Counted from the first letter of the stretch, positions 24,332-32,907 are shown. The stretch: 64,000 nt of DNA from an uncultured Alphaproteobacteria bacterium (GCA_963851215.1 CAWKOG010000017.1:345465-409464); one strand, 5' to 3'. Program-made: numbers and translations. The notes: generated from the sequence alone by a model not told the origin.

Positions 24332-24816
24332 TCGCCACCGCCATCATTTTCGCATTGCTGCTGGGCGGATTCGTGTTCCGCGTCCTGCCACAAGGTGTCA
24401 TGTGGCAACGTGGCGTGTCGGCGGCCCTGTTCTTGCTGTTGGTTGGGCTCGTCTATGGCGGCGCGGTCGAGCTGCTGGGCCAGCCCAAACCGATGCGGCT
24501 TGAGTGGCGCGGCGGGGCCGAGGAAGCCGATGTTCTTGGCGCCTCGATGGCGGAGGGCGAAGCGATCTACGTCCTGCTGCAGTATCCCGACGGCATGCCG
24601 CCGCGATACTATCAGATTCCCTGGTCGCAACCGGCCGCGGAAGCGCTGCAGCAGGCACTGCGGGACGGCCAGGAACAGGGCACCGGCGTCAAGATGACAA
24701 TGGCCGACGGACCGGGCGGTCAGCCCGGCAACGACACGCGCGAGCCGATGTTCTACGCCCCGCCCCAGGCGGCCCTGCCGGACAAGAACTACAGCGCGAA
24801 TCTTTCGTCGAACTAG
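24328..24816 (+). CDS. small membrane protein with Pro-rich C-terminal tail
   Basis: 4-nt overlap with the previous gene. Two N-terminal TM helices. Confidence 0.5.
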   Translation: MIATAIIFALLLGGFVFRVLPQGVMWQRGVSAALFLLLVGLVYGGAVELLGQPKPMRLEWRGGAEEADVLGASMAEGEAIYVLLQYPDGMPPRYYQIPWSQPAAEALQQALRDGQEQGTGVKMTMADGPGGQPGNDTREPMFYAPPQAALPDKNYSANLSSN

Positions 24817-25320
24817 AGACCAGCCAAAGTTGAAAGTGCCGCATTGAATGTCCTCTGTTTCCGTCGTACGGAAACGAGGCGGCAGTGTTCATGTTCGGTC
24901 ACCGGCGCCGGTCTAACAGAGACCGCGCCGACGAATGTCGGCCAGGCAAGCCGACCAGGAGCTATAGTTGCCGAACTATCTGCAGACCTGTTAATATTCC
25001 TTAATCACTGACCAAATTTTGCCACGCAGAACCGACGAATATTGTGCCCAAATAAGTAATTATTATGCGCCTGCTGCCGGCGCACGATAACTCGTTGGTA
25101 CTGTTGATAAATTTTACTTTGAATGAGACAGACTCGGCGCAGGCGGCAACTGCCGCATGTGACAATACTCACAGTAGATTTTGAATACTCGGCGTTCATT
25201 CCGCCTTTAATCAGCAGTGATCTGCGGGCCGCAGCCCGGTGGGCCAGACTCTGCATCTAAGTCCGGCCCTCAGAATAGATCCGCTGAAGTGCGCGAACAC
25301 TCGACGAACGAGAGCGCATC

Positions 25321-26439
25321 ATGACACTGAGCCTGACAATCACTGGTCAATCGGACTCCAAGCTCAAACTGGCTTGGCGTGACGATGAGCAGTCTTTCAG
25401 CCCGGCGCCCTATTGCGTCGGCCAGAACATTGTCCTGGATGCCAGCAAGCAAGTCCGCGACGTGCTGACCAGGATAAGCACGCACTATCGCACGTCCGAC
25501 GCGCCGAGCTATGCCGCGTTTCTGCCAGAGCTGTCGCAACGCGGTATCGAGCTCCACGAGTCGCTCTTTCTGCCCATTGAATTGGGTCAGAGCGACGCGG
25601 ATGAGGTGAAGGATTACATAGCAGACTTATCGGCCCGGGAAGCGTTGACCATCTACTCGGATGCAAGCGCGCACGTGCCCTGGGGCTTCGTGTTTCCGGG
25701 GCCGGAGGCGATCAGGAGCGAAGATGCCGTCGGCTCAATTGTCGACTTCAAGGACTTCTGGTTGTCCCGCTTCTGCATTGCCACGAGGTTCAGCAAGACA
25801 TCGCACCTGAAGGATGAAGTCCGGAGCCGGACAAATTTTCGGGTCCTCTATGTGCTTCACAAGGACGCCTTTCAGAAAGCACGGAGCCAATTGGCGCCGC
25901 CAGACCAGCTTTGCCTGGACCGGCTGATCGCAGAGGATGCGGCGAACGCCGTGGATTGGAACTCGGCCCGCGACAAGTGGCGCGCGATCGCGGAAAACGA
26001 CAGCATCATCTACATCTTCGGCCACTCGAACGGGCAGGAGATCGCTCTCTCGGACGGTGATGAACCTCATCACCGCCTGAGCGCCGGCGCATTTCGCAGC
26101 TCGTTCAAGAAGAAGGGAACCAGGTCCGCCACGATCTGCTTCACCAACGGATGCTGGACAGCGGCAGGGCACAAGGACCAGAGCTTCCTCACGGCGACGG
26201 CGCTGCCGGGATTTCATGGATTCATCGGCAGCGAGGCCGAGGTCTCCAACGAATTCGCGACGCGGTACGGCCTGGAATTCATGCGCGACATCTGCGACCG
26301 CGGTTGTTCGATCCAGGAGACATTCGAGCACCTGCGGCAAGAGCTCTTTCCCTTGAGCCTCCTCTACTCCTGCTTCGCGCACGGAAAATTCCGGATCGAG
26401 CCACGCGCGGCACCGGCGAGTCAAAGCAATGCGGCGTAG
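25321..26439 (+). CDS. CHAT-domain (caspase-like cysteine protease) protein
   Basis: 372 aa. His motif IIYIFGHSNGQEIAL and Cys motif ATICFTNGCWTAAG, followed by GFIGSEAEVSNEFATRYGLEFMRDICDRG. This is the CHAT His/Cys dyad layout. The gene follows a 470-bp AT-rich spacer and has lower GC than its surroundings. Confidence 0.75.
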   Translation: MTLSLTITGQSDSKLKLAWRDDEQSFSPAPYCVGQNIVLDASKQVRDVLTRISTHYRTSDAPSYAAFLPELSQRGIELHESLFLPIELGQSDADEVKDYIADLSAREALTIYSDASAHVPWGFVFPGPEAIRSEDAVGSIVDFKDFWLSRFCIATRFSKTSHLKDEVRSRTNFRVLYVLHKDAFQKARSQLAPPDQLCLDRLIAEDAANAVDWNSARDKWRAIAENDSIIYIFGHSNGQEIALSDGDEPHHRLSAGAFRSSFKKKGTRSATICFTNGCWTAAGHKDQSFLTATALPGFHGFIGSEAEVSNEFATRYGLEFMRDICDRGCSIQETFEHLRQELFPLSLLYSCFAHGKFRIEPRAAPASQSNAA

Positions 26440-27832
26440 CGCGGCCCAGAAAAGGTCTCCCGATATCGGGACACCGCCCGCGACCGGCGCATGGCCTGCG
26501 GAACCCTATCTCGGCATGAATTTCTACACAGCGGCCGAAGCACCCCTGTTTGGAGAGCGCGATCAGGAGATAGAGCAATGCGCGGCGCTGGTTGGTGAGT
26601 TCTCGACTCGATTACTCGTCCTGCAAGGGAAAAGCGGTACGGGGAAATCCTCATTCCTGCGGGCCGGCCTGATCCCAAAGCTGGAGCAGCAGGGCTCTCC
26701 TTTCTACTTCCTGCGAGCGGAGAAAGGAAACGCCGAGCCCACTTTCGTTCGGTGCACGGACGATCCCGTGAGCCGAATCCACGCGCTTCTGGTGTCCGCG
26801 CTCGAGAACGATCCACAGCTCGGACGGCTTCCCATCGGCTTCCGGCAAGCAGTCGGAGAATTGCTCGCATCCGCGGCGTCAGACGATCGAGTTGATACAG
26901 CGGCCGCCATCCTCAAGGTACTCGCCGTGCTTTCAGAAGGTCTGCCGCAAACGCTGGTGCTGATCATCGATCAAAGCGAGGAAATACTGACCCTGCAGAC
27001 ATCGCGCGATCCGAACAACCGGCGCAAGGCGTTCTTCTATCTGCTCGAGGAACTTTGCCTGCGCAGTCTTGACGTCAGGGTCATTGTTGCGCTTCGAACC
27101 GAGTTCTGCGGCCGTTTCTATGACGCCTTTGGCATCAATCCCAGCCTCAGGGTCACATCGGACGTGCGCGCCGGTCTCGAGCAATTCATGCTCGGCGCAT
27201 TGCCGCGGGAAGGAATTGTCGCGGCGATCCTGCGGCCAACGCTGGCGACACCGATCGAAGGCTATGGCGTCCCGCGGGAACAATACCGATTCAAGTACGG
27301 CGAAGGCGTGGCCGAACACATCGCGGAGGATCTGCTCAGCCATTGCGGCGACTCCAGCACATTGCCGGTCCTGCAAATCGCCTGCAAGGCGCTCCACAAT
27401 CAAGTGGTCATCGGGAAGAAATGCCCGAAGATCACGATCGAACACTACAAAGCCCTTGGGGGCGTCAAAGGGCGAGTCGACGCATATATCGACGACGTCT
27501 TACGGGGTGCGCTGCAGGAAACCGGCGCAACTTCAGTGAGTTCCCGCCGACCTCGTTCGCTGGCGCCGGGTATTGGCAACATTGGCCGCGCGGCAAGAGG
27601 GGAATGCCGTAACCACCCTGATTCGCGCGGAGCACGACATCGTCAACGAGGCGGACCGGCAAGAGCTCCGCGGCGACATTCCAAGGATCTTGAAAACACT
27701 TGCCAAGCACAAGTGGCGGCTTTTGAGATCCGTCATAGGCGGTACAAACGGGGCAGCCCGTCAGTACAGCCTCGGTCACGATGCGCTTGCTGTTGCGTTA
27801 CTCAAATGGGACGAGGCGCAGCAGGGCCTTGA
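26429..27832 (+). CDS. STAND-type P-loop NTPase, N-terminal segment (the last ~95 codons are out-of-frame junk)
   Basis: PYLGMNFYTAAEAPLFGERDQEIEQCAALVGEFSTRLLVLQGKSGTGKSSFLRAGLIP (Walker A) and LVLIIDQSEE (Walker B), typical of STAND NTPases that pair with CHAT proteases. After …ALQETGATSVSS the frame turns Arg-rich nonsense, while frame 0 becomes protein-like from 27540. Confidence 0.65.
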   Translation: MRRSAAQKRSPDIGTPPATGAWPAEPYLGMNFYTAAEAPLFGERDQEIEQCAALVGEFSTRLLVLQGKSGTGKSSFLRAGLIPKLEQQGSPFYFLRAEKGNAEPTFVRCTDDPVSRIHALLVSALENDPQLGRLPIGFRQAVGELLASAASDDRVDTAAAILKVLAVLSEGLPQTLVLIIDQSEEILTLQTSRDPNNRRKAFFYLLEELCLRSLDVRVIVALRTEFCGRFYDAFGINPSLRVTSDVRAGLEQFMLGALPREGIVAAILRPTLATPIEGYGVPREQYRFKYGEGVAEHIAEDLLSHCGDSSTLPVLQIACKALHNQVVIGKKCPKITIEHYKALGGVKGRVDAYIDDVLRGALQETGATSVSSRRPRSLAPGIGNIGRAARGECRNHPDSRGARHRQRGGPARAPRRHSKDLENTCQAQVAAFEIRHRRYKRGSPSVQPRSRCACCCVTQMGRGAAGP

Positions 27833-28496
27833 AAGCGCAGAGAGGGAACGCCTCGGCGCGCGCCGGAAGCTGCAAACCTATTCTCTCGCGTTCCTCTGCT
27901 TGTTGCTGTTTATCGTTGGCTCCCTGCTTTGGAAAGAAGGCACGCAGACGGTCGACCGGAGTGAAAGGCTGATCGAGTTCTCGAATGTCGAACAGGGCGG
28001 CAATTTCAGACTGAGGATACAGCTGCTGCTGAGCGCGCTGGCTCTTTCAGATGGGCTTTGGAGCCCATTCATAGATGGCGAGAGAGCCCGCAGCGAACTG
28101 ATCGCCGCCCTTGCGGTTTCGCCCATCCTTGCCGGCCAGGGAGTAGCGGTCGGGCTGAATGACGAGGGAACCAGGATTGCGGTACTTCGAGACGAGTCGG
28201 CGTTCGTTGTCGATCTTGAACGTGACAACAAGGAAGAAGTATCGACCTTCAAATTTGTGCCTGGCGAGGTTCTCGAAGCATTCAGGCAGCACCTGCCTGC
28301 AATCGGCTTTGTCTCCGGCATGGCGGCGCCGGTTGTATACGATGCGGGATATCTGTACTGGAACTCCGGTACGGCGGGATCAACGCAAATCCAGGAACTT
28401 TCACAGGACATCAGAGAGTTCTCAGAATCTGGGATTTTCGCCTGTGGGGTTTGCATCCGGCTTTGTGCAAGTGCTGATCTCCAATCGCCCCAATGA
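27573..28496 (+). CDS. middle segment of the same STAND gene (helical region with one TM-like stretch); probably not an independent gene
   Basis: Frame 0 is protein-like from 27540 (…WRRVLATLAARQEGNAVTTLIRAEHDIVNEADRQELRGD…) with no ATG. The only possible starts are weak TTGs. It ends in short junk after 28430, where frame 1 becomes protein-like. Confidence 0.4.
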   Translation: MATLAARQEGNAVTTLIRAEHDIVNEADRQELRGDIPRILKTLAKHKWRLLRSVIGGTNGAARQYSLGHDALAVALLKWDEAQQGLESAERERLGARRKLQTYSLAFLCLLLFIVGSLLWKEGTQTVDRSERLIEFSNVEQGGNFRLRIQLLLSALALSDGLWSPFIDGERARSELIAALAVSPILAGQGVAVGLNDEGTRIAVLRDESAFVVDLERDNKEEVSTFKFVPGEVLEAFRQHLPAIGFVSGMAAPVVYDAGYLYWNSGTAGSTQIQELSQDIREFSESGIFACGVCIRLCASADLQSPQ

Positions 28497-29382
28497 GACT
28501 GAGAATTGGATCAAGGTCCTCCGCGTAACGCCTCAAATGATTCAGAATGGCTCTCTCCCGAGTTCGACCAGGATTAGCTGGAGGGGGCCACTTTCCTGGC
28601 CGATCATTTCGACGCAATCAGACAAGTTTGCCTACGTGGGCAATTCTCGCGAGCAGGAAATATACAACAGCATCATGCTTTCCTCGCTGTCCGATCCAAC
28701 GCTTGTCTCGCTTGTCTACGGCTTGCCGAGTATGCGAAGCAGCGGTTTCGACCCATCCATTTCGCTGACTTTCGCCAACTCGGGGAATTCGCTGATCGTT
28801 CGCGACACTCGAGAAACACTGAGGATTTTGCCATCGGCGCAGGACCGGCGGGCCCGGCTCCTTGCACGAGCCGCTCCGGTTGTTACGATTCCGGAGGGGC
28901 TGCGGGACGATCCCGTTCAGCCGCGCCGGCTAACGATGCGGCCACTCCTCGCCGCGGCAAAAATCGACAGCGAATGGCGATTTGCATGGTTGACGGAAAA
29001 CGGAATTGCCGTGATCAGAAGCGAGGCGAGCGACCCAGAGAATGCGCAGCCGGTCGTTGACGCAAGACTTCTCACGGGAGCCGCCGACCTGGCGAACGCC
29101 TTCAAGCTGAGTTTCAGCAAGGACGGGCGCTTTCTTGTAGTGCTTCTGCGCTCGCGCATGCAGCCGCAGAGCCGGCAGCGCGGACCGATGCGGTACCTGG
29201 TCTGGGATCTCAATTACAGCAAGGCCGATCTTCGGAATGCGACCAATCAGGAGTTGCGCGACAAAGCCTGCGCCACAGCCGCGCTCGACAAGGCGGAGGC
29301 GCTTGTCACGCCCGTCGAGAAATTCGTCTGGTTTCACGACTCGGCGCTGCCCTGCGGCGAACCTCCCACCGCAGCGCCCTGA
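28159..29382 (+). CDS. C-terminal beta-propeller (WD40-like repeat) segment of the same STAND gene
   Basis: From about 28430, frame 1 shows repeated blade-like units (FAYVGNSREQEIYN, ISLTFANSGNSLIVRDTRETLRI, WRFAWLTENGIAVIRSEAS, AFKLSFSKDGRFLVVLLRS, MRYLVWDL). Upstream of 28430 this frame is junk. Confidence 0.45.
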   Translation: MTREPGLRYFETSRRSLSILNVTTRKKYRPSNLCLARFSKHSGSTCLQSALSPAWRRRLYTMRDICTGTPVRRDQRKSRNFHRTSESSQNLGFSPVGFASGFVQVLISNRPNETENWIKVLRVTPQMIQNGSLPSSTRISWRGPLSWPIISTQSDKFAYVGNSREQEIYNSIMLSSLSDPTLVSLVYGLPSMRSSGFDPSISLTFANSGNSLIVRDTRETLRILPSAQDRRARLLARAAPVVTIPEGLRDDPVQPRRLTMRPLLAAAKIDSEWRFAWLTENGIAVIRSEASDPENAQPVVDARLLTGAADLANAFKLSFSKDGRFLVVLLRSRMQPQSRQRGPMRYLVWDLNYSKADLRNATNQELRDKACATAALDKAEALVTPVEKFVWFHDSALPCGEPPTAAP

Positions 29383-29386
29383 AGCG

Positions 29387-30466
29387 ATGACCGACTTCCT
29401 CGCCAGAATGGGGGGATTTGTAGAGAAGCTGCGTTCCAGCCCGATGCCGCTGCCGACGGTCTCGGAAATCGCCCATGATCGCTGCTTGCCATCAGGCGTC
29501 GCCGGCCGTGAGATCGTCAAGGACAATGGCTACTTTACGGTGTGGCTCAACGAGCTGTTCCTTGCGGAGGGGCGCAACTGGTGGGCAACTTACGACCCCG
29601 TCGCCATTGTCGTCACGGAATTCGGCTATGGCACCGGAAGAGTCTCGGTGCCGGTCATTGTCGGACCCAATCTCATTTCGGCAAAGAATCCCGGCGTCCC
29701 GCACGGCATTGTGCTCCGCGACACCTGCGTCGCCGGGCCATATCCCTTCCGCGGCGGCAATGTCGCGATTACCGTCATCCTGTACAAGGTGAAGCATCAG
29801 GACTATGCCCGCGGATTGCTGCGTTTCGTCGAGAGTCTTTCTTCGGCGATTGGAACGCCTGCCGACATTGGCATGCTGGCGAAGGTCGGGGGCACTGTCC
29901 TCGATGGCCTGGAGTCTCTGTTGAATCTGGGCGACACGGTGCCGGTGGCCGGCCACAGGATTGAGATCGACACGTCAACATTGAGCGGCTTCGTTTCCTC
30001 CTATACGGCGCTGATCGCCGAGCGCGATGTCGACATGTCGCAGCTTCGGGTCGAGGAACGACGGCTCCTGCTGCAACAGTCCGATGGGACGAACACGAGA
30101 TTCGAGAAGGCCGACTATGTCCTGTACAGCGTTCTCGGCCGGGAACGCCGGGGCGACGAGAGCACGTTGCCGTTCTATCGCGCGTTCTTGCAGGCTCGAA
30201 ATGCCGCCATGGTGAACAATCCGGACAACTGGAAGCGCGCCAAAGCGATGCTCCTGTCGATTTACGAGCAGATGGTCCTAAGCCCGGATCTTACGTTGCG
30301 GGAGGCCGACGCATTGTTTGACTCCTACCGCGAAGATCTGTTGGCCATCCGGAAGAAATCGCAGGCCGTACATGCCATGCCCCTGGGACAGGAGCCGCCC
30401 CGGCCCGACGCCAGGGAAACCCGCGTGAACAACGCCACCTCGGTGCTGGACCTGGAGCCAACCTAA
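29387..30466 (+). CDS. hypothetical protein, 359 aa, third gene of the CHAT/STAND islet
   Basis: ATG 29387 lies 4 nt after the STAND stop. No recognisable motifs. Lower GC like the two preceding genes. Confidence 0.55.
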   Translation: MTDFLARMGGFVEKLRSSPMPLPTVSEIAHDRCLPSGVAGREIVKDNGYFTVWLNELFLAEGRNWWATYDPVAIVVTEFGYGTGRVSVPVIVGPNLISAKNPGVPHGIVLRDTCVAGPYPFRGGNVAITVILYKVKHQDYARGLLRFVESLSSAIGTPADIGMLAKVGGTVLDGLESLLNLGDTVPVAGHRIEIDTSTLSGFVSSYTALIAERDVDMSQLRVEERRLLLQQSDGTNTRFEKADYVLYSVLGRERRGDESTLPFYRAFLQARNAAMVNNPDNWKRAKAMLLSIYEQMVLSPDLTLREADALFDSYREDLLAIRKKSQAVHAMPLGQEPPRPDARETRVNNATSVLDLEPT

Positions 30467-30550
30467 GCTCCGATGGCAGACAGAACGCGGGGCGCGGGGA
30501 GCCCGCACCCGGCGCCGGACGATGTACGACCGGCGCCGGCCTGATCAGAC

Positions 30551-30820
30551 CTAGCAGAGCACGCCGGATGACGGATCGCCGCAAGGACCCTCGCCGGTGT
30601 CGACGACGCCCGACTCGGCGTCGTTCAGAACCTTGGCGACCTTATCGGCCGCTTTCCTGCCCTTGGTGTGAATCGTGCCCGTTTCATCGTCGGTGACAAT
30701 GTAGCCCGGCCCCATCGGATCCTCGCGCACCACCCATTCGCCGGCCAACACGACGGCAGGCGCGGTGAGCGCATAGACCAGCCCGAGGAAGCTTGCACTT
30801 CTCGAAATGAGATTCGCCAT
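30551..30820 (-). CDS. small secreted protein, paralogue 1 (C-terminus …VDTGEGPCGDPSSGVLC)
   Basis: ATG 30820 with GGAGA RBS. Signal peptide MANLISRSASFLGLVYALTAPAVVLAGE. 89 aa. Confidence 0.55.
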   Translation of the reverse strand: MANLISRSASFLGLVYALTAPAVVLAGEWVVREDPMGPGYIVTDDETGTIHTKGRKAADKVAKVLNDAESGVVDTGEGPCGDPSSGVLC

Positions 30821-30849
30821 GATCGATGTCTCCAATCGGTTTCTGGGTT

Positions 30850-31125
30850 TCAGCAAAGCACGCCGGAGCTGGGATCGCCGCAGGGACCTTCGCCGGTGTC
30901 GACGAATTCCTTGTCCTTATCCAGCGCCTTGTTGACCTTCTTGGCGGTGCGTGTGGCTTCTTTCTCCGTGAGGTCCAGTGGAATTCTGTTATCACCCTCG
31001 CGAATGCCGTAGTGCGTGCCGTCGTCGGTATAGGCGCTCCAGGTTGCGAACGCCGCGCCGGGGAACACCGCAAGCGCCGCCACCAGAATGAGCGCCGGCA
31101 TGCCTGCGAACTTCATGAGTTTCAT
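30850..31125 (-). CDS. small secreted protein, paralogue 2 (identical 17-aa C-terminus)
   Basis: ATG 31125 with GAAGGAGGAGAAG RBS. Signal peptide MKLMKFAGMPALILVAALAVFPGAAFA. 91 aa. The last 17 residues and their DNA are near-identical to paralogue 1. Confidence 0.6.
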   Translation of the reverse strand: MKLMKFAGMPALILVAALAVFPGAAFATWSAYTDDGTHYGIREGDNRIPLDLTEKEATRTAKKVNKALDKDKEFVDTGEGPCGDPSSGVLC

Positions 31126-31360
31126 CTTCTCCTCCTTCGCCGCGGACGGTCTCTGGTCTCGCGGCCTTGGTGCCAATGGCTGGAACATGGGCACGTCGCG
31201 CGACAGCGAATGTGATGCGCAGCACACCCGCGGGCGAATTAACGTTGCTGTTCCGATCTCAACTGAATCTTTCCCGGCGATTCACGCTAGCTTCACGGAT
31301 GCCGAAGGAATGGGGCGGGACTGAAACCCGCCCCTACATGCGGTTCGCGATTCATGTGTA

Positions 31361-31397
31361 GAAGCGAAAAAGGCCGCACCGTTGCCGGTGCGGCCTT
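31361..31397 (-). terminator. rho-independent terminator downstream of the SPFH gene
   Basis: 12-bp perfect stem AAGGCCGCACCG/CGGTGCGGCCTT with a 4-nt loop, followed on the minus strand by TTTTTCGCTTC. Confidence 0.55.
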
Positions 31398-31424
31398 CTC
31401 CGTCCCGTCCTCGTCACCATCGCC

Positions 31425-32576
31425 TCACGCCGGCTCCGGCGCCTTCAGGCGCAGGAGCTTGCTGAGGAGGGCGTCGAGGCCCTGGGCTTCGCCGGCGTGG
31501 AGGTCGATGCGGCCGACCTTCTCCACCAGCTTCTCGAGGCTCTCGAGCTCCTTCAGCCGCAGGAGGAGCGGGTTGTCCTCCATCAGCTTGGCGGTGTTCA
31601 GGAGCGAGCGCGTCGCCGCGGTCTCCTCCTGGCGGCGGATCAGGTTGGCCTTCGCCGTCCGCTCCGCCTCCACCACTTTGTTCACGAGCTCGCGGATCTC
31701 GCCGGGCAGGATCACGTCCTTCACGCCGAGCTCCGTCACCTCGATGCCCGTCTCGCCCAGGCGCTCACGCACGAACGTACGCAGCTCCTGATCGAGCGCG
31801 CCCTTGGCGGAGAGCACCTCGTCCAACGTCCGCGCCGCCACCGCCTCGCGGATGGCGAACTGCACCAGGCGGTACAGCCAGCCGTCCACATCCGCGACCG
31901 CGCTCGCCGCGCGCTCGGGATCGACGATGCGGCGCAGCGCGGAGAGCGTCACGCGCAGGGCGATGCGGTCCTTGGTCAGCATCTCCTGCGCGGTGATCTC
32001 CACCGCCTGCGGCCGCAGATCCACCCGCTTGACCTCTACCTTGCGGTTGACGGTCCAGTAGGCGTGGCGGCCCGGCGCCAGGCGTTCCACCAGGCGGCCC
32101 TCGACATAGAGCAGGCCGGCCTCGTGGTTCTCCACCACCGTCTCCGCCAGGTAGACGCTCCGCGCGCGGTCGAGCAACGTCAGGTGCCGCGCGGCCACGC
32201 GGGGCTCGCGCGCGACATCGATGCGCTCGACCTCGACGGCCGTGGCCACCTTCCAGAACACGCGCACCTGCCACGGACCGGCCAGATGGACCGGCCGGCC
32301 GTCGAGGCTGACGATGGCGAGCTCATCGGCCCGCGTCTCCACCGCCTCGAACAGTTCGGCCGCCATCGCCGGCCGCTCCGCCTTCATCACGGCGTAGCGG
32401 TCTGCCGCGAACTCGGCGCGAACCACCTGGAAGATCTCGGCCTTCAGCGTGCTCAGCGGATCGAAGACCCAGTGACGGCCCGGGCCGAGCACGCGCTCGT
32501 ACCGGCCGTTCCGCGTCAGGAGGGCGCGCTCGCCATCCTTCACGGTAACGCGGAGACTCAGAATAAGCCTACTCAT
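31425..32576 (-). CDS. SPFH/band-7 (stomatin/flotillin-like) domain protein
   Basis: ATG 32576 with GGAGG RBS (the ORF-track 17-aa N-terminal extension is unlikely). Long coiled-coil C-terminal part typical of SPFH proteins. Confidence 0.8.
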   Translation of the reverse strand: MSRLILSLRVTVKDGERALLTRNGRYERVLGPGRHWVFDPLSTLKAEIFQVVRAEFAADRYAVMKAERPAMAAELFEAVETRADELAIVSLDGRPVHLAGPWQVRVFWKVATAVEVERIDVAREPRVAARHLTLLDRARSVYLAETVVENHEAGLLYVEGRLVERLAPGRHAYWTVNRKVEVKRVDLRPQAVEITAQEMLTKDRIALRVTLSALRRIVDPERAASAVADVDGWLYRLVQFAIREAVAARTLDEVLSAKGALDQELRTFVRERLGETGIEVTELGVKDVILPGEIRELVNKVVEAERTAKANLIRRQEETAATRSLLNTAKLMEDNPLLLRLKELESLEKLVEKVGRIDLHAGEAQGLDALLSKLLRLKAPEPA

Positions 32577-32907
32577 GGTAACCTCCACACTTCGGCCTTG
32601 CGGCCATGCCGCAAGACTCTGTTGCAACTCTGAGGATACGGGTTCCGGACGCGTCTTCGCGAAAGACCGGCGGGCCAGGGCTTGAGCCCGCGGGAATCAG
32701 CGGGCGCGCGCCGGCGCGCACCGCACCGAGGTGCTGTGAACGGCAGCCGAACCCGACGATCCGCGCGGGCGATATCCGCCCCGGCGCAGAGCCGGTCTCA
32801 AGTTGTCTGGTACGTTCGATGGGCCTCTCGGCCAGCCGACCGGACCGCGACTGAAGCGCGCGTCCGGTTCCCTAAAATGGGTTTCAGTTTTTCAGGCTGA
32901 ACCGGAG

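Follow-up and report, generated by a model that had tools for sequence, protein, structure and literature searches.

The stretch of DNA analysed here (the window) comprises 64,000 nucleotides from an uncultured Alphaproteobacteria bacterium (GCA_963851215.1 CAWKOG010000017.1:345465-409464). Near its middle, at positions 30,551 to 31,125, we have identified two adjacent minus-strand open reading frames (ORFs), genes B and A, which lie head to tail 29 nt apart and encode small, predicted exported proteins (Table 1). The final 17 residues of the two proteins are one and the same peptide, VDTGEGPCGDPSSGVLC, with the stop codon placed directly after the last Cys, and BLASTP of A against B aligns the C-terminal 34 residues only (E = 2e-13). 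The initial annotation had described the locus as a tandem of secreted paralogues with different signal peptides and an identical C-terminus of 17 residues; the Sec-type N-termini and the alignment agree with this description. What it could not see is that the two genes form an ancient, obligately paired module distributed across Proteobacteria, the tails of which evolve in concert.

Table 1 Features of the A/B locus and its surroundings; positions are counted from the first letter of the window
Feature	Coordinates	Strand	Description	Basis
Gene B	31125..30850	-	91 aa and TGA stop, starts MKLMKF; B-type member	ORF and translation
Gene A	30820..30551	-	89 aa and TAG stop, starts MANLIS; A-type member	ORF
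Signal peptide of B, predicted Sec	31045..31125	-	residues 1-27, MKLMKFAGMPALILVAALAVFPGAAFA, predicted cleavage before TW (between AFA and TW)	read from the sequence
Signal peptide of A, predicted Sec	30743..30820	-	residues 1-26, predicted cleavage after VLA, before GEW	sequence and family alignments
Tail of B	30853..30903	-	last 17 codons, VDTGEGPCGDPSSGVLC, C-x8-C loop closing the protein	
Tail of A	30554..30604	-	last 17 codons, peptide identical to the B tail	
B-A intergenic spacer	30821..30849	-	29 nt, holds the ribosome-binding site of gene A, GGAG (30830-30833), 9 nt upstream of A	
Shine-Dalgarno (SD) sequence of gene B	31129..31137	-	AAGGAGGAG, strong, ends 3 nt ahead of the ATG; unchanged across six related loci	
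Upstream non-coding region	31126..31301	-	176 nt; probably promoter, operator and 5' untranslated region (UTR)	six-locus alignment
CRP-like palindrome	31209-31226		TGTGCTGCGCATCACA, TGTGC-N6-TCACA	
Spaced motif	31235-31257		ATCGGAAC-N5-CGTTAATTCG	
Terminator of the SPFH gene	about 31365-31400		GC-rich hairpin and T-run	
SPFH/Band_7 gene	32627..31425		upstream of the pair on the coding strand	
Palindromic stem	30510-30540		perfect 10-bp stem, CCGGCGCCGG-N11-CCGGCGCCGG	
STAND islet	24815-30550		5.7 kb; nSTAND1 NTPase and several ORFs without Pfam match	
nSTAND1 NTPase gene	26429-27832		within the islet	

Read from the sequence, both N-termini consist of a basic n-region and a hydrophobic core followed by AFA/TW in B or VLA/GEW in A (the slash marks the predicted cleavage). 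The mature chains are predicted to begin TWSAYTDDGTHYGIREGDN (B) and GEWVVREDPMGPGYIVTDDETGTIH (A), and the A-x-A/xW junction with its invariant Trp is kept across the family alignments. The twin-arginine motif is absent from both N-termini. Assignment to the bacterial lipoproteins was rejected: the lipobox [LVI][ASTG][GA]C with Cys at +1 is missing, and no Cys occurs at or near either cleavage site. The very strong ribosome-binding site (RBS) ascribed to the first gene was confirmed directly before the ATG of gene B. Longer versions of gene B (from GTG at 31227) and gene A (from TTG at 30856) were discarded, since neither N-terminal extension is conserved as protein and a strong RBS precedes the ATG in each case. 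The 29-nt spacer holds no terminator, and genes B and A are therefore probably co-transcribed; similarly short B-A spacing was seen in all related loci. The ratio of non-synonymous to synonymous substitution rates (dN/dS) between orthologues is 0.10-0.31 for B and 0.10-0.23 for A. By this measure both copies are real genes under purifying selection and neither is a dead duplicate, which answers the caveat of the initial annotation that one of them might be a non-expressed duplicate fragment.

The Cys residues of both tails are spaced C-x8-C (C-G-D-P-S-S-G-V-L-C), i.e., eight residues apart and not six, as first counted. At the DNA level the tails of A and B share 44 of 51 nt (86%), which falls short of the near-identity claimed for the last ~60 nt. 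All seven differences are synonymous, including TCA versus AGC for Ser, and the longest identical run is 14 nt. A pattern thought to be shared by the middle parts of the proteins (TDDGT-HY) proved not to be homologous: in the Trp-anchored alignment YTDD of B pairs with VRED of A, and TDDETGTIH of A with REGDNRIPL of B. A six-frame motif scan found no further copy of the tail motif in the window. The match between the tails of A and B far exceeds chance and was found again in all related genomes that we examined.

Word-indexed searches of 5.8 billion proteins recovered about 30 B-type and 23 A-type orthologue clusters (about 53, a close clade), all of 85-94 aa, unnamed or ‘hypothetical’ and without a Pfam domain; a third search of this type, with a wide alignment, added little, as K-rich words dominated the candidates. 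A DNA-pattern search for DDGSGxCxxPxxxC-stop returned four loci, all of them chance matches. Profile search of 1.84 billion cluster representatives extended the set to 69 proteins (E <= 1e-3) with a common layout. It comprises a signal peptide, a mature chain opening with x-W in which the Trp is invariant, a beta-beta-beta-alpha core whose helix carries a conserved A..A..LNK pattern, a linker rich in Lys, Glu and Asp that varies in length and, in most of the 69, a tail G-[FV]-x-D-x-G-x-G-x-C-x-x-P-...-C that closes on a terminal Cys; other members end without the Cys loop. Both window proteins have this layout and align with family members over their full length. Named sources are metagenome-assembled genomes (MAGs), affiliated with uncultured Alphaproteobacteria, Burkholderiaceae, Gammaproteobacteria and Candidatus Thiodiazotropha, along with one Dongiaceae MAG. 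The family is sparse across Alpha-, Beta- and Gammaproteobacteria, and all Proteobacteria in which it has been seen so far are uncultured; no relative was found by tblastn in plasmid or phage records.

For A and B alike, AlphaFold2 (AF2) modelling from the family alignments gives one common predicted core (beta-beta-beta-alpha, three short strands and one helix), roughly 45 residues long and starting at the invariant Trp, with a predicted local distance difference test (pLDDT) score of about 86 for B (residues 30-70) and 84-90 for A. The initial annotation had not recognised the family, and the profile searches likewise led to no Pfam, NCBIfam or PDB family, nor did any PDB fold match. Neither window protein reached more than about 14 bits against Pfam and NCBIfam, below the curated cut-offs of the family models, and a PADLOC scan of both gave no match. 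Scans of the 69 members against Pfam and NCBIfam produced only isolated single-member weak matches and no family, and K-rich designed proteins were all that a sequence-profile search of the PDB retrieved. The C-terminal motif likewise matched no well-characterised family or sorting tag, another caveat raised in the initial annotation.

The two gene types occur together throughout. A B-type gene followed in tandem, within a few tens of nt, by an A-type gene was found in 16 of 16 contexts examined, namely the window, the related loci L001-L005, L006, L008-L011 and L016-L019, and L020; among these, L006 is a Burkholderiaceae MAG, and L010 and L011 are gammaproteobacterial MAGs. In L020, the one tail-less pair examined, both proteins are without the tail. 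The B-type and A-type cores are ancient paralogues, the pair having been kept together in Alpha-, Beta- and Gammaproteobacteria. A third copy is present in L005 (2257-3150) and L008 (7694-8569), arranged B-A-A' or B-A-A, the latter in L008. The A' subtype, found also in L004 (10248-10523), where it is the sole A-type partner, carries a tail GQG[PS]CGHPSARV[AP]C unmatched to that of B.

We compared the tails of 14 B/A pairs from separate loci or contigs, several of which belong to one close clade. Within a pair the loop segments agree on average at 13 of 16 positions, between pairs at 6.9 of 16 (permutation p <= 1e-5). The length of the loop is 5, 6, 8 or 11 residues depending on the lineage, yet equal within the pair in all 14, and the cores of these pairs are only 23-50% identical between A and B. 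The two tails read GFIDNGDCPENVLC and GFIDNGDCPEGVLC in L010, and AEEDGPCAKPMPNMNC and AEEDGPCARPQPNMNC in L006; in L017 both genes encode KKEGKGFKDDGDCPPGLRC, 19 identical residues for which 12 of 19 codons differ. Between related genomes the product of the SPFH gene next to the pair is 95-97% identical versus about 58-70% for the mini-proteins, which evolve fast throughout, the tail excepted.

The codons of the tails bear on what keeps them alike. The window and its close relative L001 have the same 7 synonymous and 0 non-synonymous tail differences; purifying selection therefore holds the peptide, and no conversion has occurred since their common ancestor. Near-identical tail DNA was found in L003, with 1 of 19 codons different, and in L002, with 3 of 17 different and a rare ACA codon common to both tails; this points to recent gene conversion. 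Both processes offered by the initial annotation as alternatives, gene conversion or strong constraint, therefore occur, constraint in the window and conversion in L003 and L002. Over 13 pairs pooled, codons of identical residues differ at 35% of tail and 44% of core positions (Fisher p = 0.09); the synonymous divergence of the tails is near the level of the ancient cores, so that conversion alone does not explain the match. Selection holds both tails to one peptide, with occasional conversion resetting them.

The L003 and L002 tails, including the shared ACA codon of the latter, would also suit an account in which the match is a neutral by-product of short-tract conversion between adjacent paralogues, each protein working alone. 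Adjacency and common orientation of the genes favour conversion, and several pairs tolerate diverged tails. We nevertheless consider this account unlikely: seven differences without a single amino-acid replacement in the window and L001, and 12 of 19 codons changed under an unchanged peptide in L017, speak against neutrality. The 35% tail divergence, near the 44% of the core, indicates that conversion is old in most lineages and identity is held by selection. Moreover, a longest identical run of 14 nt makes the window tails a poor recombination substrate, and the constant co-retention of A and B would be left unexplained.

Comparison of tails from the alphaproteobacterial clade revealed D-15, P-10, C-9, P-6 and C0 as the only invariant positions. 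Position -5, situated in the loop, is hypervariable, with 10 different residues across the clade; the first Cys is followed by G, H, A or N, and next by D, P, H, L or V, His standing directly after the first Cys in 20 of 51 clade tails. Because only D, P, C, P and C are invariant while position -5 takes ten residues, the tail sequence resembles a recognition loop on a scaffold more than a site of catalysis or metal binding. The metal site initially thought possible is thus not favoured, there being no conserved potential ligand besides the two Cys. Two metagenomic relatives depart from the usual ending: in P0040 Tyr replaces the first Cys (GPYGHPSAQVLC), and P0053 reads past the usual end (…SGVLLRDNQ…). 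Each is possibly a degenerate copy or an assembly error.

No gene neighbour is common to distant lineages among the 16 contexts. The pair adjoins SPFH in the Dongiaceae-like set, MsrB/MsrA and bacterioferritin genes in L006, a PepSY-like gene with response-regulator and kinase genes in L009, purK/purD in L010, a Psr-like reductase gene with a rhodanese gene directly upstream of the pair in L016, a cyanophycin synthetase gene in L018 and MscS/AlaX in L019, where a rhodanese gene is located nearby. As neighbouring genes differ completely between distant lineages, the module is self-contained, with no modifying enzyme, transporter or receptor linked to it. In the Candidatus Thiodiazotropha MAG (L011, 1-2449) a complete bufferin-type operon (BufA1 PF10048, MNIO PF05114, HvfC_N and DoxX) lies divergently, about 770 bp from the pair. 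Such an operon was seen beside the pair in this one lineage only; the proximity may be fortuitous, or may hint at an association with metal or thiol stress.

Some of these neighbours would accord with a thiol-based carrier or redox function, in which the Cys pair on a flexible Gly/Pro-rich arm binds a ligand either covalently or by coordination (sulfane sulfur, polysulfide, Cu(I) or a mixed disulfide), much as the C-terminal arm of SoxY does in SoxYZ. Genes of sulfur, thiol or metal flavour lie near the pair in L006 (MsrB/MsrA, bacterioferritin), L011 (BufA1-MNIO-HvfC-DoxX), L016 (rhodanese, Psr-like reductase) and L019 (rhodanese), and none were found in the window, L002, L008, L010, L017 or L018. 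A carrier would fit the small size, gene adjacency and predicted export of the two proteins, whose flexible C-terminal arms end at Cys, and likewise the His after the first Cys in 20 of 51 clade tails. The function is unlikely in our view, since no ligand besides the two Cys is conserved and both sequence and length of the loop vary freely, which is unusual for a chemical site. A carrier is also hard to reconcile with the tail-less pair of L020 and with the other members that end without the Cys loop, and neither sequence nor fold is similar to SoxY/Z.

The flanks of the pair had been described as a CHAT/STAND islet and an SPFH gene. SPFH/Band_7 and nSTAND1 are indeed present; in the islet ORFs that were tested, Pfam revealed no CHAT domain. 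The order SPFH-B-A is found in L001 and L003-L005. An operon of SPFH with the pair was rejected, as the SPFH gene has its own terminator hairpin and is not beside the pair in L002, L006, L009-L011 and L016-L019; in L008 the sole SPFH gene lies about 5.5 kb upstream of the pair with four other genes between. SPFH-B-A is accordingly clade synteny and not an operon. In L001 (8600-9700) the SPFH orthologue matches the window protein in several frames; the DNA is 95% identical and collinear, which suggests frameshift errors in a long-read MAG rather than a pseudogene. L005 (contig CAYZTJ010000250.1, 3.5 kb) is labelled as uncultured Nitrospira sp.; the label is probably a binning error, because the SPFH-B-A synteny and the 97% identity of its SPFH match Dongiaceae-like alphaproteobacterial loci.

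The initial annotation had implied a link of the pair to the STAND islet. This was refuted by L001, a 95% identical relative, which has about 100 bp in place of the islet, with the breakpoint right after the stop codon of gene A; the islet is therefore an insertion unrelated to the pair. The adjoining segment 23187-24814 is also missing from L003 and L004, and together with the absence of the islet from L001 this marks the 3' side of the pair as a variable region. Just downstream of gene A, between convergent genes, lies the palindromic stem listed in Table 1. It has no T-run and is located on the islet side of the L001 breakpoint; it may serve as a terminator in both directions or as an element of the junction.

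The non-coding stretch ahead of gene B surpasses the coding sequence in conservation across six loci, including L008 with its different upstream gene. Besides the CRP-like palindrome and the spaced motif (Table 1), it contains a direct repeat CGTGAA-N5-CGTGAAT with an 11-bp period and an invariant hairpin just before the SD sequence of gene B; each upstream motif occurs only once in the window. A CTTCCGCCTCC block potentially pairing with the SD sequence is present in L003-L005 and L008, and not in the window or L001. A structured RNA in the 5' UTR was rejected, since the pre-SD hairpin is invariant and shows no covariation (RNAalifold). A relaxed Rfam scan of 29500-32800 gave only sub-threshold matches, all on the SPFH terminator hairpin. 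A scan for sigma-70 promoter and terminator consensus found nothing, and an EcfG (general stress) promoter was discarded, GGAAC and CGTT being present, but 5 nt apart and not 16-17. We read the upstream blocks as putative protein-binding sites for regulators.

Taken together, the concerted tails and the unbroken pairing lead us to favour, tentatively and as a possibility that falls somewhat short of probable, a periplasmic or secreted A/B heterodimer showing two equivalent disulfide-closed loops as a lineage-specific binding surface. A and B would work jointly in the periplasm or extracellularly, in the simplest case as a heterodimer, and each Cys pair would close a disulfide in the oxidising periplasm, so that each flexible arm would carry a small stapled loop. 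The two arms would then be interchangeable copies of one lineage-specific binding epitope. The dimer might be bivalent for a single partner, which could be a symmetric or repeating component of the envelope, or else a shared receptor or enzyme. Such a bivalent requirement would keep the tails matched, through purifying selection here and through occasional gene conversion that resets both copies.

Several points weigh against the heterodimer. Exact identity of the tails is not obligatory: they are diverged in L004 (11/16), L018 (9/16) and P0010/P0050. An old conversion in each lineage followed by stasis can also yield matched tails with no requirement for equality. Linker and tail are of low confidence in the AF2 models (pLDDT below 50 for the tail of B), and nearly all known members of the family come from MAGs and metagenomes.

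The same matched, lineage-specific tails with one hypervariable loop position, and the retention of the peptide despite synonymous divergence, would also be explained if both genes were precursors of one exported disulfide-cyclised peptide of 10-17 residues, a signal or an antagonist. The cores would then be carriers or pro-domains and the linker would be cleaved; the differences between lineages would be pherotype-like. The charged low-complexity linker between folded core and loop is in line with this, and the layout recalls signal-peptide precursors that end in a Cys-closed ring, of the somatostatin or C-type natriuretic peptide (CNP) type. We consider such precursors very unlikely: the pair has no constant neighbour encoding a protease, exporter, receptor or kinase, the linker shows no evident conserved cleavage motif, and two ancient core types are kept even in the tail-less pair, which speaks for a role of the cores themselves. 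A related view, distinctly unlikely, takes the matched loops as the actual product, i.e., a lineage-specific disulfide-cyclised peptide ‘code’, either displayed bivalently by an A/B heterodimer or released from both precursors. The code would mediate specific recognition (self/non-self, signalling or antagonism) in Gram-negative bacteria, both copies being forced to change in step with an unlinked receptor; if true, it would represent a new class of exported peptide-recognition system in Proteobacteria. The remaining probability belongs to explanations outside those considered here.

Whichever of these applies, we are dealing with an undescribed exported mini-protein family of ancient paralogues that have never separated, with loops matched in the pair and free to diverge between lineages, all within a tiny module of about 0.6 kb. 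Loops that are matched within a pair and divergent between lineages normally mark a specificity-determining interface, and they therefore point to an envelope or extracellular interaction in soil and marine Proteobacteria. Should the tails be no more than stapled ends without a partner, what remains is a new DUF-like family in which gene conversion acts locally.

No described family, sorting tag, class of ribosomally synthesised and post-translationally modified peptides (RiPPs) or solved fold accommodates the A/B proteins, which we rate as a new kind of protein module; the pairing with matched terminal Cys loops has, to our knowledge, not been described before, and no account of it was found in the literature. 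The first system to be compared is SoxY/SoxZ. SoxY carries its functional Cys on a flexible C-terminal ‘swinging arm’ in the periplasmic SoxYZ heterodimer. The likeness lies in two small adjacent genes for exported proteins, a heterodimer, for A and B a proposed one, and a Cys on a Gly-rich C-terminal arm. SoxY, however, has a Tat signal, an Ig-like beta-sandwich, a single Cys in GGCGG-COOH and a place in sox clusters, whereas A and B have Sec-type signals, a beta-beta-beta-alpha core, a two-Cys loop in both proteins and no sox neighbours. Membership in SoxY/SoxZ was rejected, as GGCGG-COOH is absent, the predicted fold differs and no Pfam Sox model matches.

Bufferins (BufA1/DUF2282 and related precursors, which MNIO enzymes modify) resemble A and B as small Cys-containing peptides with a Sec signal and a place of action, presumed for A and B, in the periplasm, and the L011 pair adjoins a BufA1-MbnB/TglH-HvfC-DoxX operon. 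Bufferins are defined by an adjacent MNIO (DUF692) enzyme, a DUF2063 partner and homology to BufA. Pfam scans detected no MNIO (PF05114) or DUF2063/HvfC in the ORFs at 23.6-33.9 kb of the window, nor in L006-L010 and L016-L019. MNIO and HvfC occur only beside L011, being absent from the window and 14 of the 15 other contexts, and the operon of L011 has its own BufA1 and is divergent. Moreover, none of the 69 members matched BufA1 (PF10048) or BufA2 in Pfam, and a bufferin or MNIO-dependent RiPP precursor was rejected on all these grounds. RiPPs of the AviCys type (lanthipeptide or linaridin) were likewise set aside: a Sec signal is present, no LanD/HFCD decarboxylase or dehydratase is encoded nearby, and linaridin_CypA scored 14 bits versus a cut-off of 35.

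C-terminal sorting tags (PEP-CTERM, GlyGly-CTERM and LPXTG) also place a short conserved motif at the extreme C-terminus of otherwise different exported proteins. They differ in combining the motif with a hydrophobic transmembrane helix and a basic cluster, and in being accompanied by a sortase, exosortase or rhombosortase. The tail ...GEGPCGDPSSGVLC is hydrophilic, forms no helix and ends on Cys, and no NCBIfam tag model matches the window proteins, so that a sorting tag was rejected; among the 69 members one weak match only was obtained, to the PEP-CTERM model PEP_EDSA_1.

Weak Foldseek matches, and only these, relate the predicted fold to chemokine-like proteins, i.e., small secreted proteins (about 65 residues) in which a basic C-terminal helix comes after three antiparallel strands; the topology is shared, and the resemblance is not one of homology. 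Among loop-inserting inhibitors, Ivy, a periplasmic lysozyme inhibitor encoded by a single gene, uses an internal disulfide-closed loop, CKPHDC, as its binding element, and thus resembles the proposed form of A and B as a small periplasmic protein that presents a short disulfide-closed loop. Ivy differs in its internal loop, its other fold, its single gene and the lack of homology, whereas in A and B the loop sits at the C-terminus and is present in both paralogues.

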